Positions 9,479 to 15,826 of a DNA stretch of 64,000 bases are shown here, piece by piece (the stretch's first letter is position 1; each line of letters opens with the position of its first letter). The notes beneath the pieces are model-generated. The model saw nothing but the letters and a program-made list of their open reading frames with translations. It made no database searches and was not told the origin of the DNA. Position numbers and translations under genes: made by a program. This DNA comes from Candidatus Kapaibacterium sp. (GTDB lineage Bacteria > Bacteroidota > Ignavibacteria > Kapaibacteriales > UBA2268), in the NCBI GenBank assembly GCA_963664875.1, contig OY761611.1, positions 2,816,001-2,880,000 of the forward strand, in the 5' to 3' direction.

Positions 9479-9722
9479 TTGAAGCTAAAAGTTTATTACG
9501 CTTTATAAAAAGATTTACTATTGCTATAGAATATCTGAAAGTTAGAATCCAGAGAATAAAATAGTAACCTTGATATTTAGGTTTTGGGAAATATGCTTGA
9601 AAATTGTCAAAAGCAAATTGAAGCTCATGCTTTTAATCTCCGTGCAATTAATTTTAGTTTTGCAAAATATTATCTTATATTAAGTTAATTGGAAAATGTG
9701 TATTTATTTTGAGAGTACTGCT

Positions 9723-11783
9723 ATGAAAAGGTCTATGCTTTTGATGCTCGCAATTCTATTGACTTGCGCTTTTGTTTTAACTTCTTGTGGAGACTCTGAT
9801 TCTACCGGTCCGGATAATCCGCCAGTTGTCAATCCTGTATCTGAAACAGTAAAACAGGAAATATCTAAGGATTTCGACGGAGCTGACCTTGAGTTTACTT
9901 TTGAAAATGGATTGACAGTCTTTGTTAACTCGGCAGACAATCCTTCTGTCAAGGGCAAGATAACTATTAGACTAATGGACGAAGAACAGTTTTTCAATGG
10001 CGATAATCTGTTTGTGCTCGATTTTGCTAAAACGGCAATCGATGTTAAATATAAGTATGAAATAACTGCACTGCCCAATTTAGTCAAAGAAGATATTTCG
10101 ATTATTTCTTATTCTCCTGATGAGTCGCTCCAAGAGTTGAAGGCAGGACTAATCAACTTTAACTATGATGCAGGCACCGGGCTAATAAACGGGGAGTACA
10201 ATTTTGCAGGGAAACCATCTTCAGGCAAAGGGGCTACTTTGCTGGCAGGAAAAGATTATTCCCGTATTGTTGTTTCTTATACCGATAGGATGAAAATGGC
10301 TGAGGGCGACGAAGAACTTGCATTACAAATGCCTTTTTATGAGCAACCCGGCTCTTCTTGCTGGGCTACTTGTGCAGAAATGATGAGCCATGCCTATGCT
10401 AATCCTAAAGATAATTACTATACAAATAAAATTACAGAGTTTGTGAAGTATATCGGGCATAATTCTCTAAATGAGGGTATTGGTCTTTGGGATTTTAAAA
10501 GAAATTTGACTAAAGCTATAAATCTTTATGGAAAAACAAACACAGAGGTATCTACATTTGTCTCTAAGTCTTCACTGCTTGAAGAAATAATTACAAAACT
10601 CAACGAGCAGAAACCAATGATTCTGAATCTGACTTATCCCAATGTCGGACGCCATGCTGTAATGGTCATTGGCTATAAAAAAGAGCAGATATCAGCTTCA
10701 AAACTTGCTGTGAAACTGCTTATCCATAATCCGCAAAATATGAGCGGTGAAGCTATGAATAAGTGGGTGGATTTTGATTGGCTAATGAAAGAGAAAGCGA
10801 TGACAGAGGCTTATCAAATCCTTTACTCTAACTCGGCAATGCCTACACGAACTCCGGTTACAGTCGGTATGCCAATTGAAAGAGAACTTGGAGACATGAA
10901 TTTTGTGGTAAGCTCTAAAGGTAAGAAATACACAATAGGAATGGTTTACGACAAAGCTCAAGAAGATGGTTACAGCTGGGCTTTTGCAAATGGAGATATA
11001 TGCAAAGTGTTGCCGGATACGAGTTCTGCTTTTGCTTTTAGCCTACCTGTTTATAATGCCGGAGCTGCGGATAAAGAACTTAATTATATTATCAAGATGA
11101 TTAACAACACCTCAGGAAAGACTGTTGCTGAAATCAAAGAAACACATACGGCAATAATGGGTAATTCAAAAATAGATGGAGAGTTGCCAATAAATATTTA
11201 TGGTGGCAGTGATGTGGTGAAAGGTGCTATCTCAGTAACTATCGAAGACAAAAGCACCGGTGCATTTTTGGATGGTTTTAGAATAGATTTTCAAATTGAC
11301 AGAAGAAACTTGATAATACTTCCATACTTTAGTCTTGATTATGTCAAGCTTGTTGATGATAATGGAGTAGAATACTATAATATGGATGTCGCCATTTCTG
11401 ATTTGCCGTTGAAGAGAAGCGGTAAAGCTTACTCAGGCAGTAGAACAAGAACATTTGTCAATTCGTGGGGTGATCAGGTATTAGCGGAAGAAAATCTGGA
11501 ATTTGCATTTGACAAAGAAGATAATCCGACTAATTTCAATTACATCAATGTGTTTATTACATACTCTCATGCAGTGACAGGCAAATTGGCTGAAAGCTAT
11601 AATATTAAGTTTGTGAATGTTCCTGCGAAGTTAGCCCGTCAGGACATCAAAGGTTGGTATTCTGTCAAAGGAGATGATGTATGTGGCAATATAGACTTCT
11701 TTGAAGTAATCGATTCCGGTGTATTTACGAATTATAAATGCTCAAGTACTTCCGGAATGTCTATCAATTTTGTCGGCTTTTGA
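9723..11783 (+). CDS. Large lipoprotein with papain-fold (C39-like) cysteine peptidase domain
   Basis: Lipobox LTSC; PFYEQPGSSCWATC, GRHAVMVIGY, IHNP; ATG 9723 likely (ORF track 9696). Confidence 0.7.
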   Translation: MKRSMLLMLAILLTCAFVLTSCGDSDSTGPDNPPVVNPVSETVKQEISKDFDGADLEFTFENGLTVFVNSADNPSVKGKITIRLMDEEQFFNGDNLFVLDFAKTAIDVKYKYEITALPNLVKEDISIISYSPDESLQELKAGLINFNYDAGTGLINGEYNFAGKPSSGKGATLLAGKDYSRIVVSYTDRMKMAEGDEELALQMPFYEQPGSSCWATCAEMMSHAYANPKDNYYTNKITEFVKYIGHNSLNEGIGLWDFKRNLTKAINLYGKTNTEVSTFVSKSSLLEEIITKLNEQKPMILNLTYPNVGRHAVMVIGYKKEQISASKLAVKLLIHNPQNMSGEAMNKWVDFDWLMKEKAMTEAYQILYSNSAMPTRTPVTVGMPIERELGDMNFVVSSKGKKYTIGMVYDKAQEDGYSWAFANGDICKVLPDTSSAFAFSLPVYNAGAADKELNYIIKMINNTSGKTVAEIKETHTAIMGNSKIDGELPINIYGGSDVVKGAISVTIEDKSTGAFLDGFRIDFQIDRRNLIILPYFSLDYVKLVDDNGVEYYNMDVAISDLPLKRSGKAYSGSRTRTFVNSWGDQVLAEENLEFAFDKEDNPTNFNYINVFITYSHAVTGKLAESYNIKFVNVPAKLARQDIKGWYSVKGDDVCGNIDFFEVIDSGVFTNYKCSSTSGMSINFVGF

Positions 11784-11981
11784 TATTGAATATCTGATTT
11801 ATAGCTGAAATATCATTTGAATCGGAATTTATTCGACATAAGTAACAGTGGGAATAAGATATAAGTAAATTCTCCTTTTGACTGAACAGGTTTATTCTGC
11901 CGTTGTCCCTACAATACTGACGGCAGCTGTGATATTGAAGGGCTACTTTAATATTCCGGTTGAATATGCAGAATGTTATAA

Positions 11982-12089
11982 GTTCTATACTTTTATGACC
12001 TGAGGACAGAATTGAGAGCCAATAGTAATGCTGCCAATTATTTTGGTAAAGAGCATGGAGTTCATTGGAATTTTAGAAAATAGCCTTTA
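11982..12089 (+). pseudogene. Relic C-terminus of a polymorphic (RHS-type) toxin
   Basis: Start-less fragment VLYFYDLRTELRANSNAANYFGKEHGVHWNFRK*PL, resembling from memory the E-x-x-A-N...YFG...W...YP end of Bacteroidetes RHS toxin tips; ends just before a lipoprotein gene. Confidence 0.45.
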
Positions 12090-12108
12090 TTATTGGAGGA
12101 ACAAATTG

Positions 12109-12531
12109 ATGTACAAATACTATATATATATAATTTTATCATTATTGTGTTCGTGTAAAGATATTTCAATGGAACCGACTGATTATACTTTATATTTCCA
12201 AAACAAAGGAAATCATAGTATTGTATTATTATTTGGAAATGGACAGTGCTCTACTGTATCTTATCCAGAATTGTTACCACAATCTGACCTTTGGAAAAAA
12301 TGTTCCAAAACCTTACTCAAAGAAACAAGTTTTGTTTATTCCATTGATAGACATTGGGATGAATATTTAGATACTTTCCCTAATGATACAATGGCAGTAT
12401 TTGTTTTTGATCCGGATACTCTAGAAGCGTATCCATGGGAAGTTATCCGAGACGAATATAAAGTTCTTAAGACACATTTTATTACAATAGATGATGTTTT
12501 GAAGTCAGATACGATTGTAATTTATCCTTGA
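12109..12531 (+). CDS. Hypothetical lipoprotein (candidate immunity protein)
   Basis: GGAGG then ATG 12109; lipobox LCSC; DTMAVFVFDPDTLEAYPWEVIRDEYKVLK...IYP. Confidence 0.75.
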   Translation: MYKYYIYIILSLLCSCKDISMEPTDYTLYFQNKGNHSIVLLFGNGQCSTVSYPELLPQSDLWKKCSKTLLKETSFVYSIDRHWDEYLDTFPNDTMAVFVFDPDTLEAYPWEVIRDEYKVLKTHFITIDDVLKSDTIVIYP

Positions 12532-12535
12532 TAAA

Positions 12536-12567
12536 GAGAAAACCAAATGAAAATTAAACACAAAAAA
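12536..12567 (+). repeat. Inter-gene repeat copy R1 (truncated)
   Basis: GAGAAAACCAAATGAAAATTAAACACAAAAAA; 29/32 identical to 13179-13210. Confidence 0.85.
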
Positions 12568-12637
12568 ATAACAAATAAGATAGGGTTGTTAGAACTAATT
12601 GTACAAGTCAATTTGTATTTCAATTATGAGATGTTTA

Positions 12638-13174
12638 ATGAAAGAATTTAATATAAATTTCTATCTACACTTCACAGTGTTTATGCTTTTATTGCAAGGT
12701 TGCGCGATTATGTGTGATTGTGATCAAGAACCAGCTCCCACATTAGAAGTAGTGGAAAATAATAGTGATATTTTGCGGCTTGATGGATATTATTTTGATA
12801 GTCCTGAAGATATTGATTATATAAGTTATTGTTTTGTACTATACAAAAATGGAATTGCTTTATATTCTTTTGGAGTAGATAGGGGTGATGCAATTTCTGG
12901 TAATATAGAATTCGACAATGCCCCAGAAGATAAACAAATATGGTATAGTTATTTTTTGACTGATGACGATATTCTGATACAGGGATGGGCACCTTCAATG
13001 AAATGCAATGGCACATTAATTACACATAAAGGGAAAGTCTTAAGTGATACTACATTTGAATTGACACATAGAGCATATGACACAGACGAATTTTATAAAT
13101 TAGACAAACCTATTCTTTATACTTTTGTCCCGTATGAAAATAAACCAGATAGTACTAATATCTTCATTCCATAA
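12638..13174 (+). CDS. Hypothetical lipoprotein (candidate immunity protein)
   Basis: Lipobox LQGC; LRLDGYY, FVLYKNG, GKVLSDTTF, KPDSTNIFIP; ATG 12638 likely. Confidence 0.75.
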   Translation: MKEFNINFYLHFTVFMLLLQGCAIMCDCDQEPAPTLEVVENNSDILRLDGYYFDSPEDIDYISYCFVLYKNGIALYSFGVDRGDAISGNIEFDNAPEDKQIWYSYFLTDDDILIQGWAPSMKCNGTLITHKGKVLSDTTFELTHRAYDTDEFYKLDKPILYTFVPYENKPDSTNIFIP

Positions 13175-13178
13175 TACC

Positions 13179-13263
13179 GAGAAAACAGAATGAAAAATAA
13201 ACACAAAAAACTAGTCATAATGCTACTATTAGCATTGCTGCAAACTTGAAGTTTGCTCGCACA
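13179..13263 (+). repeat. Inter-gene repeat copy R2 (signal-peptide relic with internal TGA)
   Basis: Encodes MKNKHKKLVIMLLLALLQT*SLLAQ from ATG 13190; 67/74 identical to 14104-14177. Confidence 0.9.
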
Positions 13264-13339
13264 GCACACGATAACTTTAGGATATGACACTTCAGATGCT
13301 CCATTCTTTTATAATGTTAATTTACCATTGAGAAAATAA

Positions 13340-14128
13340 ATGAAATATCTAATTTTATTTTTGTTTTGCTTTCTTAGTTTGAAGTCTAACGAAGTTGGTA
13401 TCAAAGGGTACAAAGAATTTTGGAATAACAATACACAAATAGAGGATTTTCCGTGTTTGTTCTTGATTTTAGAAGGTAATAATTATGAGGTAGGCCTAAA
13501 TACAGGCGAAGAATTTTATCACCATACGATTCTTGGAGGGCAATTTTCTATTAAAAATGACACGGTAAAATTTAAAGATTTATTTTATAATGTGGAGTTT
13601 ACAGGCACTATATCTGATAGTACTTTTGTGTTTCACAATACAAGAACATTTCTTGACAGCATGCAATTATCTCTATTTACTCAGGATACAGCCACTCAAT
13701 TCGTTCACACAGTTCTAGAAGATACTGTAAACGCAAAACATTATTTGGTTCAATGGTTAACAAATAGCAAGAAAGGTTTAGAAGAATTATCTGCCTTACA
13801 AAAGGAGACTAATCTCAAAGTACCAGGCAAATATGAAGTAATCATATATGGTGCAAAGAAATATAGATATGTGTTTGTCTTAAAAAACAATTCTACTTTT
13901 GAATATTATTTTAACAATAGAAAGATTGCTAAAGGAAAGTTTTACTGTAAGTCAGGTAGAATTTATTTTAAGTTTTTTGGAAAATATTTTGAGGGTATCA
14001 TCACTGGCAAGGACTCTTTTATCTACTGCCAATTACCTGGATTTCACAAAGATGGTTACAAATATTACCATTTTAATAAAGTAACACCTAAGGACACCAC
14101 AAAATGCAAAATAAACACAAAAAACTAG
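13340..14128 (+). CDS. Hypothetical exported protein with two similar beta-rich halves (candidate immunity protein)
   Basis: Signal-like MKYLILFLFCFLSL; GQFSIKNDTVKF versus GKFYCKSGRIYF; 3' end runs into repeat R3. Confidence 0.7.
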   Translation: MKYLILFLFCFLSLKSNEVGIKGYKEFWNNNTQIEDFPCLFLILEGNNYEVGLNTGEEFYHHTILGGQFSIKNDTVKFKDLFYNVEFTGTISDSTFVFHNTRTFLDSMQLSLFTQDTATQFVHTVLEDTVNAKHYLVQWLTNSKKGLEELSALQKETNLKVPGKYEVIIYGAKKYRYVFVLKNNSTFEYYFNNRKIAKGKFYCKSGRIYFKFFGKYFEGIITGKDSFIYCQLPGFHKDGYKYYHFNKVTPKDTTKCKINTKN

Positions 14129-14177
14129 TTATAATGTTACTATTGGCATTGTTGCAAACTTCGAGTTTGCTCGCACA
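14104..14177 (+). repeat. Inter-gene repeat copy R3 (signal-peptide relic)
   Basis: Start of mini-ORF 14104-14199, MQNKHKKLVIMLLLALLQTSSLLAQNTFHNG*. Confidence 0.9.
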
Positions 14178-14335
14178 AAATACCTTTCATAATGGTTGAG
14201 GCTTCCATAAACATATTGTATCATTTTATTGCACAAAAAGGTGGATTTTATTATCCTGTTGGTGTTGCCCCGGGGCAAATATCTGCAATAAAGACTTAAC
14301 AGTATTTTCTAAAGGCATTTTATATTGACACAGAA

Positions 14336-14372
14336 AAGCCCTTCAGCATTTACGATATGTGTTGAAGGGCTT
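14336..14372. terminator. Terminator between the array and cheV
   Basis: AAGCCCTTCAGCA...TGTTGAAGGGCTT inverted repeat between convergent units. Confidence 0.65.
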
Positions 14373-14414: not shown

Positions 14415-15365
14415 CTAAACAGTCGCCATATTCCTTTCAATTAGAGTTCGGACTACATCTAATAATTCGCCAATCTGAGGTTTTGTCATTTGTGCATCTG
14501 CACCTACTGATTGACCTTTATGCAAAATATCATCTGAAACTATCGAAGAGAAAATTACAACCGGTAATTTCTTGAGTTTATCATCATTTTTAATGTGTTT
14601 TGTTAAAGTATATCCGTCCATACCCGGCATTTCAATATCAGTAATAACCACATTCACCAAATCGTCAAGGTTAGCACCATTTGCTACCGATTGGGAAATT
14701 TCACGCATTTTATTCCAAGCTGACTCTCCGTCTCTGAAAGATATAATTTCGAAGCCTGCTTTTTTTAGCCTTTCAGTTATCAATTTGCGGATAAGGGAAG
14801 AATCTTCAGCTGTTACGGCAATAGGTTTATGGTCAAAGAACTTTTCTTGATTAGAAGCGTCCATCGCACTTGCAGGATCAATGTCTGCCACAATTTTTTC
14901 GACGTCAAGCATCAAAATGTGTCTATCTTCAAAGTTGATTAGACCGACAACTGTGGATTTTTCGGGATTGAATTCTTCCATAGTGTCCGGCGACATAATT
15001 TGCTTCCACGATATTCTGTGTATTCGCTGCACATCTTCTACAATAAAGCCAACCTGCACTTTGTTAAATTCAGCAATTATCATTTTCTTTTTATCGAAGT
15101 CTTCTTCGATGCCATAAAGAAATTTTCCTAAATCTACAGCCGGAATTACATGACCTCTGAGGTTGAATACACCGCAGACCATATCCGGCAAGCTTGGCAT
15201 ATATGTCAAATCAGGCATCCTTATGATTTCTCTTACCTTAGCAACATTCACACCATAGGATTGCTTCTTAGGACGCCCGGCTCTATCATTGAAACCAATA
15301 ATAAACTCTACGATTTCTAATTCGTTAGTGCCTGACTCTAAAAGGATGTTGGTCTTTACACTCAT
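14415..15365 (-). CDS. cheV: Chemotaxis protein CheV (CheW plus receiver domain)
   Basis: ILLESGTNELEIVEF, YGVNVAKVREII, AEDS, ITDIEMPGMDGY; ATG 15365 after GGAG. Confidence 0.95.
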   Translation of the reverse strand: MSVKTNILLESGTNELEIVEFIIGFNDRAGRPKKQSYGVNVAKVREIIRMPDLTYMPSLPDMVCGVFNLRGHVIPAVDLGKFLYGIEEDFDKKKMIIAEFNKVQVGFIVEDVQRIHRISWKQIMSPDTMEEFNPEKSTVVGLINFEDRHILMLDVEKIVADIDPASAMDASNQEKFFDHKPIAVTAEDSSLIRKLITERLKKAGFEIISFRDGESAWNKMREISQSVANGANLDDLVNVVITDIEMPGMDGYTLTKHIKNDDKLKKLPVVIFSSIVSDDILHKGQSVGADAQMTKPQIGELLDVVRTLIERNMATV

Positions 15366-15826
15366 ATACAACTCCGGAATAAGCTTAAATATATAGTAAT
15401 ATACGATAAATCTGTTTATAAATTATAAAGAATATCCACTTTATTTTGCAGGCTCTCTTGCTTAGGTATATCTATGTGTATTTAGTACTTTAAAAATTGA
15501 GTGAAGAGACGGCTCCAAAATATAATTTGCACAGTTTGAAAACAATCTGCATCGTCTAAATTTGTCTTTGCCATAAGCCATGCACATATTCTCACAAAAT
15601 CTAATATACATTAAGAAAAAGTAGGTAATTTGCGGAATTGTGTTTAGCAGAAAATAGAAAGAACATACCTGCTAAACTGCTATGTATCTTTAAAATTGAG
15701 TATGCCTGTTAATAACAAAAACAAGAAAATTACGTAAACAAACTTTGGGTTTCATCACTCATTTTATTTTAAACCACCAGAGTTATGATTGGGTCTAAGA
15801 GAAAATCACTATTCATCGGAGAAAGA

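Follow-up and report, generated by a model that had tools for sequence, protein, structure and literature searches.

Locus and gene content

The window analyzed here is a 64,000-nucleotide (nt) stretch of the genome of a Candidatus Kapaibacterium sp. (GCA_963664875.1, contig OY761611.1, positions 2,816,001-2,880,000), and our subject is a candidate orphan-immunity array at window positions 11868-14299. The genome (hereafter G000) is one 3.83-Mb contig with 36% G+C. Three co-directional genes for proteins of 140, 178, and 262 amino acids (aa) lie between the stop codon of a C39-like peptidase gene and the end of a cheV-like gene; these genes and all other features of the array are on the + strand. 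Gene 1 (12109-12531) encodes a lipoprotein-like protein of 140 aa, gene 2 (12638-13174) a 178-aa lipoprotein, and gene 3 (13340-14128) a 262-aa exported protein. Judged by eye, each product starts with a signal peptide or a lipobox-like N-terminus. The three proteins are mutually unrelated in an all-against-all phmmer comparison, and none belongs to a Pfam or NCBIfam family. A search for related loci that used single proteins as queries yielded no relatives.

Directly 3' of each gene lies a copy of one repeat, which reads ATG AAA AAT AAA CAC AAA AAA ... and encodes the Sec signal peptide MKNKHKKLVIMLLLALLQTSSLLAQ. A repeat search of the window returned it as family D1, with three copies (12525-12570, 13168-13213, and 14082-14127), and family D2, with two copies of 79 nt that are 90% identical (13185-13263 and 14099-14177). 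The copies reach to different points of an intact gene for a 698-aa protein found elsewhere in the genome (698-type gene; see below). R1 (12532-12582) comprises a leader of ~15 nt and the first 24 nt of this gene (96% identity), followed by 12 nt of the start of an SSEEKR-family gene; positions 12546-12581 are 89% identical to 3699159-3699124 of the genome, the start of a gene of the SSEEKR immunity family (L2_174m), so R1 is the stub of a lost cassette. R2 (13175-13288) consists of the leader and the first ~99 nt of the 698-type gene, with the signal peptide, the start of a YD motif, and a TGA at 13247-13249, and R3 (14086-14185) of the leader and the first 82 nt. In many copies the TGA of the preceding open reading frame (ORF) overlaps the ATG of the repeat as ATGA; copies with ATGC extend the preceding ORF by several codons. 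R3 is of this second kind, and gene 3 therefore runs on into it, its final 8-13 codons (PKDTTKCKINTKN) being encoded by the leader and start of the repeat.

Over 74 nt, R2 and R3 show seven differences, at codon positions 3/1/3: Lys/Gln, GTC/GTT, CTA/TTA, TTA/TTG, CTG/TTG, and TGA/TCG, the last involving two bases. Position 13248 reads C in three metagenome runs, giving TCA (Ser) in place of the TGA, so the stop codon of R2 is recent.

The array also holds shorter pieces, most of them directly upstream of a gene. R0 (11868-12008) is a decayed internal fragment of a 698-type gene that has no signal-peptide part; it corresponds to nt 124-180 and 245-305 of the intact gene and carries an internal deletion as well as stop codons, and positions 11868-11924 and 11948-12008 are 91% and 85% identical to 3540043-3540099 and 3540164-3540224 of G000. 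It leads into the 3' tip remnant of an HExxH-type RHS toxin (12004-12083), which retains the last ~26 codons (...TELRANSNAANYFGKEHGVHWNFRK) and a stop at 12081-12083. Positions 12004-12062 are 80% identical to 3539382-3539440, the 3' end of an RHS gene of the same genome, and the remnant matches aa 1127-1158 of the RHS protein at 47% (tblastn). The 5-nt overlap of R0 with this remnant looks like a microhomology junction. Before gene 2 lies a candidate toxin tail (12583-12629) of the last ~12-16 codons (..RTNCTSQFVFQL, stop). Homology of the window with the congener G001 begins 45 nt 5' of the gene-2 ATG, and the piece is probably the end of the toxin paired with gene 2, its toxin origin in the window being deduced. 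The tail between R2 and gene 3 (13289-13339; 16 codons, TSDAPFFYNVNLPLRK, stop) gave no sequence match and is possibly, by its position, another toxin 3' tip remnant. Beyond R3, the array closes with an end piece (14186-14299; ..KGGFYYPVGVAPGQISAIKT, stop), for which a homolog search returned nothing. In contigs of the metagenome runs X7 and X9, from related strains, the repeat is followed by CACGAGTTTGC and the sequence from 14229 onward, which places the end piece in frame with the signal peptide.

A preliminary description of the window, made from its letters alone, had pointed to three unrelated exported genes each followed by a repeat, to the same seven R2/R3 differences, to a toxin-tip fragment before gene 1, and to the lack of a nearby integrase, and each of these points was borne out. 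No integrase family occurs among the ORFs of at least 130 aa in window positions 1-28000, and of the eight genome-wide PF00589 hits none lies within 300 kb of the window or near the further repeat arrays at 3.69-3.70 Mb.

The repeat is the start of a secreted-protein gene behind an RHS toxin locus

G000 contains 11 copies of the repeat at four places: three in the window, one at 3539920, one at 3690639, and six minus-strand copies at 3696630-3701105, which are spaced ~1 kb apart and form a second array. The repeat is also present in three of four same-genus genomes (one match in G001, two in G002, and seven in G003) and in none of 56 genomes searched outside the genus. Its genomic copy number and its presence in congeners thus argue against chance. 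In 14 copies from four genomes, the variable columns of the first 72 nt fall on codon positions as 10/3/14, so the repeat evolved as coding sequence. All copies have the same left end, an AAGGA-like purine stretch resembling a ribosome-binding site followed by the ATG. Their right ends vary, homology to the 698-type gene stopping at nt 22-24, 42, 64, or 71-82 in G000, at nt 132 in G001, and at nt 171, 193, or 281 in G002 and G003, with a further end at nt 305. Some copies hold a 7-bp palindrome (GCAAACT..AGTTTGC); considered as a recombinase site, it was rejected, as it is not conserved and is absent from the intact genes and the G003 copies.

At 3539920, the repeat forms the genuine beginning of an intact ORF of 698 codons. 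The encoded protein comprises a signal peptide, a YD-type motif (NTYTYGYDDAGNRIQ), a Cys-rich body, and a sorting tail of the type IX secretion system (T9SS; Por_Secre_tail, 28.4 bits; TIGR04183). Its gene lies directly downstream of the main locus of the genome (3532440-3539904), which consists of a TcB-like gene, an RHS gene, and a gene for a 139-aa protein in immunity position. The first protein (1189 aa) matches SpvB (3.4e-10) and FG-GAP_3 (6.8e-12), as well as TcdB_toxin_midN at 2.3e-5 and 24.2 bits, slightly below the cut-off of 24.8. The RHS protein (1158 aa) matches RHS_repeat (2.4e-12) and carries Rhs_assc_core at aa 780-872; its last ~286 aa are the variable part and contain PKYMHEYGHYLDS, an HExxH motif, although this tip matches no Pfam toxin family. 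The main locus therefore has the SpvB, beta-propeller, and RHS architecture of a TcB/TcC-type polymorphic toxin system. The 139-aa lipoprotein gene begins 3 nt after the RHS stop and its product is 56% identical to gene 1, and the 698-aa gene is followed by a gene for a 441-aa BNR protein with a T9SS tail and by a tyrosine integrase. The order at this locus is toxin, immunity gene, MKNKHKK gene; the MKNKHKK gene is not the first. At two places in G000 (3,519,070-3,521,141 and 3,543,583-3,544,095), an RHS locus is followed within a few kb by an opposite-strand tyrosine integrase; in contrast to the arrays, the main toxin loci may thus be part of integrative elements.

Other genomes show this order as well. 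A 698-type gene stands directly downstream of an RHS-immunity pair at five loci (G000 at 3.54 Mb, G003 L036, G118 L059, G007 L071, and G658 L075) and behind a truncated or interrupted RHS gene with its immunity gene at two (G003 L044 and G429 L064), such that the secreted gene comes after the immunity gene at 7/7 loci with an RHS gene or RHS piece. At G003 L036, a fused TcB-TcC protein of 2330 aa is followed by a different, 202-aa gene and by a 697-aa gene whose product is 71% identical to the 698-aa protein; the RHS parts of this locus and of G000 are just 30-34% identical, and toxin tip and immunity gene differ. G003 L044 has a 346-aa RHS end piece, a 257-aa gene, and a 709-aa gene. In a different genus, G118 L059 combines a 2031-aa SpvB-RHS-Ntox23 protein, a gene-2 homolog, and a 659-aa gene with YD start and T9SS tail, and in a different family, G429 L064 combines an RHS core and Ntox23 piece, a gene-2 homolog, and a third gene whose 161-aa product has a signal peptide, the YD motif, and a T9SS tail. 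At the two loci checked upstream of the TcB gene (G000 and G003 L036), the neighbor is an unrelated gene on the opposite strand.

In a side survey of this taxonomic family, we inspected 18 flanks on the 3' side of long RHS genes; contig ends truncated three of them. A Por_Secre_tail gene occurs within the next 1-4 genes in 8/18 flanks, four of them above and four below the Pfam cut-off, and six of these eight genes have a signal peptide and a YD/RHS-repeat start. The respective loci are L067, L068, L069, L071, L072, L075, L077, and L084, and such genes also occur at L059 and L064. For five of the eight, no ORF of at least 70 aa separates the RHS gene from the T9SS-tail gene.

Homologs of the array genes in immunity position

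Gene 1 matches the 139-aa gene of the main locus (phmmer E 1e-46) and a 141-aa gene of G003 that lies behind an in-frame toxin chimera (2e-54). This family follows the HExxH toxin at two loci (the main locus of G000 and the intact chimera of G003), and the tip remnant in the window precedes gene 1 itself. By homology and position, gene 1 appears to be an orphan of the immunity family encoded behind the HExxH RHS toxin. The three family members are near-identical over the last ~52 aa and divergent in the first half. At the DNA level, window positions 12347-12570, which cover the 3' half of gene 1 and the repeat leader, are 87% identical to G000 3539720-3539943, and the 5' halves cannot be aligned. 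The likeness of the 3' half points either to a gene-conversion tract running from the repeat or to a conserved C-terminal half combined with a diversifying N-terminal half. Complex prediction for the HExxH toxin domain with the gene-1 family returned no verdict (score 0.00), and the structure model of the toxin domain has a mean predicted local distance difference test (pLDDT) value of 33.

The gene-2 family is far larger: a word-based search gave 3 hits, and a full HMMER search gave 420 representatives at E<=1e-3. We built a profile from 50 of the 420 and searched 400 genomes sampled from the phylum, which yielded ten matches in six other genomes, corresponding to seven testable loci and one at a contig start. 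At five of the seven, an ORF with the Pfam domain Ntox23 (E 1e-11 to 7e-25) lies directly upstream of the gene-2 homolog, namely at G118:C3, at two loci in G497, in G414, where four tandem homologs follow, and in G429. In the congener G001, a longer remnant before the gene-2 homolog matches, at 12.5 bits (E 3.5e-6 for one target), a hidden Markov model (HMM) made for this purpose from the five Ntox23 toxins; a Pfam scan of the remnant gave no match. The gene-2 family is thus widespread in Bacteroidota and stands in immunity position after Ntox23 toxins, and from this adjacency binding and neutralization of the toxin are predicted. The consulted sections of the 2012 toxin catalogue name no immunity family for Ntox23 (PMC3482391).

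The predicted structure of the gene-2 product is an eight-stranded beta-barrel (pLDDT 90.9). Foldseek found nothing in pdb at E<=0.001. In the VIA wide search, the best Z score was 7.4, to lipocalin/avidin-like eight-stranded barrels, and two protease-inhibitor barrels scored 5.3-5.5; these scores are within the range common for the tool and therefore support only the designation as a small beta-barrel lipoprotein. In the protein atlas, gene 2 scores 0.96 to an unnamed Bacteroidota lipoprotein cluster.

Gene 3 is a candidate orphan immunity gene. It has a weak paralog, a 265-aa gene at 3697599-3698396 (25% identity, phmmer E 5e-8 to 1e-8), which directly follows a chimera of the signal peptide and an RHS C-terminal piece (HEYGQ). 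The family has three members, the third in G002; all belong to this genus and all are followed by the repeat. With these queries it was not detected in 300 class-level or 400 phylum-level genomes, no more than two proteins were found in a set of 5.8 billion, and the protein atlas contains nothing at 0.9 or above.

Composition of the units and their variation among relatives

Across the arrays, each unit appears to be built of a 5' fragment of a 698-type gene, a toxin 3' remnant, and an immunity gene. Where the sequence after the break of the repeat is recognizable, it is a toxin C-terminal piece. At G000 3698689, the signal peptide is in frame with a stretch 79% identical to aa 1067-1095 of the RHS protein, in which HEYGH is changed to HEYGQ, and the 265-aa gene follows. 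In G003, an in-frame ORF of 292 aa joins aa 1-93 of the 698-aa protein to an entire HEYGH domain with 67% identity to the RHS tip of G000, and is followed by the 141-aa gene-1 homolog. Other G003 units carry a piece of a Tae4 amidase (Pfam 5e-11) followed by SSEEKR-family proteins, and the L2_264 family follows an RHS C-terminal piece in this genome. The toxin homology begins inside the C-terminal domain, at RHS aa 963, 1067, or 1127. Matches to the two partners overlap by 3-5 nt at two junctions and are separated by 7 nt at a third.

The arrays of G001-G003 differ in content and place. That of G003 has five units of the same build, in which two junction types occur twice each, and the junction at nt 193 with the same toxin piece is found in both G002 and G003. 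Closer to the window itself, three wastewater-metagenome runs (X7, X8, and X9) contain a relative that is 95-97% identical to it. In each of the runs, the C39 gene, genes 1 and 3, and cheV are covered, and depth falls to zero over 12764-13171. A contig of X9 joins 12545 to 13189, with 11 letters common to both sides; the 643 nt skipped are exactly the gene-2 unit between R1 and R2. Units are hence observed to be present or absent with the repeats as their boundaries.

Within G000, two further repeat arrays (3,689,183-3,690,710 on the plus and 3,696,560-3,701,640 on the minus strand) lie in opposite orientation around ~5 kb of housekeeping genes. They have in common a pair of paralogs of 264 aa and 261 aa (38% identity), and two of their SSEEKR immunity genes start with the first seven codons of the repeat. 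Classical orphan arrays occur at 2,077,000-2,093,400 (minus) and 3,209,900-3,214,200 (plus), where repeated ORFs of 290-470 aa start with an RHS core fragment (..YELTDHLGNVRLTFADYKYRENYSLPR..) and are each followed by a small gene. Rhs_assc_core gives 22 hits in the genome, 12 of them over the cut-off and none in the region of the window. Classical core-led arrays and repeat-led arrays thus coexist in G000.

Flanks of the array

The gene directly 5' of the array (9696-11783) encodes a C39-like peptidase lipoprotein of 695 aa with the papain-like Pfam domain Peptidase_C39_2. A homolog sits elsewhere in the congeners, so this gene is probably outside the system. Between the two, at the left edge of the array, positions 11803-11860 hold a 16-nt exact match (11825-11840) and short matches to the Ntox23-like remnant before the G001 gene-2 homolog, and may represent a further toxin scrap (E 0.008 in a small search). 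Downstream, the cheV-like gene (14415-15371) is convergent with the array. Between it and the array end, positions 14336-14372 hold a perfect inverted repeat of 10 bp (AAGCCCTTCA / TGAAGGGCTT) whose loop measures 17 nt; the length of this loop explains why it was missed by the terminator scan, which found none. The accompanying promoter scan returned 21 promoter-like sites, not above the 16.7±5.2 of shuffled sequences. The flanks of the relatives' arrays map to scattered places of G000. Together with the lack of linkage of the window's own flanking genes in the congeners (see below), this means that a position at a synteny breakpoint is not specific to the array.

Proposed array assembly and alternative explanations

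In our reading, positions 11868-14299 probably constitute a heterogeneous orphan-immunity (polyimmunity) array of TcB/TcC-type RHS polymorphic toxin systems, whose products are predicted from position and homology to neutralize toxins. The preliminary description had likewise taken the array for leftovers of RHS/SpvB (TcB-TcC-like) toxin-immunity units, and the homologs behind toxins support it: those of gene 1 at two loci, those of gene 2 behind Ntox23 at five of seven, and gene 3 through its weak paralog only. Its view that the repeat derives from the beginning of an actual gene for a secreted protein agrees with the intact gene at 3539920 and with the coding-type variation. It had also proposed to look for an intact MKNKHKK gene with an RHS/SpvB gene behind it; such a gene was found adjacent to SpvB/RHS genes, but the RHS gene lies upstream and none follows, and the 698-type gene comes after the immunity gene, which contradicts the idea that the repeat is the start of the first gene of the operon. 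Cassette content, when compared among relatives, varies as described above for the X9 contig and the congeners G001-G003.

We propose that assembly would start from a main locus with the order TcB-like gene, RHS toxin gene with variable C-terminal domain, gene for an exported immunity protein, and conserved signal-peptide/YD gene whose product is sorted by the T9SS. Each junction would arise once, through an illegitimate join of a 5' part of the downstream gene to a 3' part of the toxin gene. The joins themselves are seen in the sequences; candidates for their cause are tandem duplication, deletion between tandem units, and a re-integrating circle, among which the data do not discriminate. The simplest route would be a tandem duplication at a main locus that spans the region from the toxin tip to the 5' end of the 698-type gene. 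Because each unit ends at the translation start of the next copy, the repeated 5' ends would act as homology arms, and ordinary homologous recombination between them could add, remove, duplicate, and relocate ready-made units with no need for an integrase, a step partly visible in the unit missing from X9. The toxin pieces would then decay, and the exported immunity proteins would be retained and protect against envelope-acting HExxH, Ntox23, and Tae4 toxins from related strains.

Several observations weigh against this reading. Two of the seven testable loci of the gene-2 family (G118:C5 and G510) have no toxin upstream, and the tip remnant of ~12 codons before gene 2 in the window is not identifiable by itself. 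The link of gene 3 to toxins is thin, running solely through the weak paralog, with no recognizable toxin remnant before the gene. The X9 joint comes from a single contig with a depth of 2.8, and the step that creates a junction was not seen directly. Neutralization of a toxin by any of the three proteins is read from position and homology. Furthermore, the array region is lodged between the C39-like peptidase gene and cheV without an RHS gene upstream or an intact 698 gene downstream, and its arrival there is unexplained; no empty site could be defined, as the flanking C39, cheV, OPRT, and TonB-receptor genes are mutually unlinked in 4/4 congeners.

A different route to the same units would start from tandem sets of secreted adaptor, TcB/RHS toxin, and immunity gene, each of which lost its interior so that the 5' part of the adaptor gene came to adjoin the toxin 3' tip. 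This was the serial gutting of full units envisaged by the preliminary description, and it correctly predicts the junction order of 5' secreted gene, toxin tip, and immunity gene, as well as end points that differ between units, as expected of independent deletions. We nevertheless regard it as improbable, since tandem full-length units were not seen, the secreted gene follows the immunity gene at 7/7 loci, and each deletion would have to remove ~9 kb. Moreover, G003 has identical junctions in different units and shares an identical junction with G002, and a related strain (X9) lacks one unit precisely from repeat to repeat. The recurrent junctions and the missing unit therefore fit the shuffling of units via the repeats better than independent interior deletions.

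The cassette-like order with a repeat between genes would also suit an integron-like or rAID-like array in which the repeat is the attachment site of a distant site-specific recombinase, and the palindrome of some copies and a tyrosine integrase 1.5 kb beyond the genes that follow the main RHS locus could be cited in its favor. However, the 300 kb around the window array and the surroundings of the arrays at 3.69-3.70 Mb are free of integrases, the repeat is a coding start with coding-type variation, its right end ranges from 22 to 305 nt, and the palindrome is lost in the intact genes and the G003 copies, which makes this explanation very unlikely. We give equally little credence to the view that there is no immunity array, and that unrelated exported proteins merely acquired a duplicated leader or the signal-peptide ORFs encode functional small secreted peptides. 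It accords with the lack of Pfam or NCBIfam families for genes 1-3, with the 31 open codons of the R3 ORF, and with the in-frame product of 40-odd residues in related strains; against it, the gene-1 and gene-2 families directly follow toxin domains elsewhere, R2 has a stop, R1 amounts to a stub of 24 nt, and the peptides show no mutual relationship beyond the signal peptide.

Beyond the array itself, a broader reading, which builds on the flank survey described above, is speculative and in our view rather doubtful: the class of proteins in which a signal peptide and one or two YD repeats precede a variable middle and a T9SS tail may be a dedicated surface partner of TcB/TcC-type antibacterial RHS toxins in Bacteroidota, with the first 20-300 bases of its gene serving as a recombinase-free docking arm for immunity cassettes. 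Such a partner might, for example, tether or present the RHS shell via its YD strand. The docking arm would arise since the 698-type gene is the sole constant right-hand neighbor of a hypervariable toxin-immunity module, and the joins would yield signal-peptide-toxin chimeras, such as the 292-aa ORF of G003 with its intact HEYGH, that might be exported and make the immunity gene indispensable. If true, Tc-like cocoons would be linked to type IX secretion.

Orphan immunity arrays determine the survivors of contact-dependent warfare, and their assembly is still debated. The present case suggests a route that would need neither an integrase nor the conserved core of the toxin, with the translation start and signal-peptide segment of a downstream gene as the common arm; arrays built on such an arm can therefore sit far from any toxin gene. 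The analysis further offers the first testable toxin partners for two unnamed lipoprotein families, the HExxH RHS tip for gene 1 and Ntox23 for gene 2, and points to a recurrent T9SS-sorted, YD-starting neighbor of TcB/TcC-type RHS toxins in a poorly studied lineage. A literature search at the level of titles and abstract openings found no work on toxin systems of Kapabacteria or on a T9SS/YD partner of RHS toxins.

Comparison with known immunity arrays

Classical orphan modules of Rhs and contact-dependent growth inhibition (CDI) systems are said, after work of Poole and colleagues in 2011, to be strings of toxin C-terminal pieces with immunity genes that stem from module exchange; reportedly, they start with a conserved RHS core or CdiA pretoxin piece and follow the full gene. 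Similar to these, the window has a toxin C-terminal piece followed by an immunity gene in the case of gene 1, and short unassigned tips before genes 2 and 3. In contrast, its units lack a core piece and open with the signal-peptide segment of a different gene, and the array is not downstream of a full-length rhs or cdiA gene but of a C39-like peptidase gene.

Polyimmunity loci, in the parts of their description consulted here, are tandem co-directional unrelated immunity genes with strain-to-strain variation and a presumed role in protection from non-kin toxins; XerC/D recombinases lie beside several of them, and Ntox23 and the TcdB/TcaC trafficking mode are listed for Bacteroidetes (Zhang et al, 2012, PMC3482391). 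The window likewise has tandem genes, with toxin-adjacent homologs for genes 1 and 2, and varies between strains. Its array differs in being small (three genes) and in having toxin remnants and a coding-derived junction repeat, with no recombinase found. The rAID-1 arrays of Bacteroidales, according to the portion of the report available to us, are orphan immunity arrays in which a XerD-like recombinase is conserved and the repeats between the genes are non-coding (Ross et al, bioRxiv 10.1101/471110). They resemble the window in combining orphan immunity genes with repeats between them in the same phylum-level group, whereas the window has no XerD-family recombinase and its repeat is a gene start. 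Integrons differ in turn, as the window has no nearby integrase and carries a coding start of variable length instead of attC.

Immunity arrays in type VI secretion system (T6SS) clusters of Vibrio cholerae have been attributed to sequential displacement (Kirchberger et al, 2017, PMC5361080). As far as the consulted portion of that study describes them, they are akin to the window in their mixed-type orphan immunity genes, partial effector remnants, lack of an integrase, and proposed homologous and illegitimate recombination; their anchor is upstream, a conserved part of the effector or vgrG, and the arrays lie behind an active effector. In the window, by comparison, the 5' end of the gene that follows the immunity gene provides the arm, the arrays stand apart from RHS genes, and the toxins belong to the TcB/TcC-type RHS proteins of a T9SS-bearing relative of the Bacteroidota. 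In kind, the locus belongs with the orphan immunity arrays and polyimmunity loci already known, and its junction glue is unusual. Three features set it apart: its arm comes from the start of the gene behind the immunity gene, in contrast to the upstream conserved toxin part of the Vibrio and Rhs/CDI cases and the recombinase site of rAID-1; the arrays stand separate from toxin genes; and the joins have produced signal-peptide-toxin chimeras.

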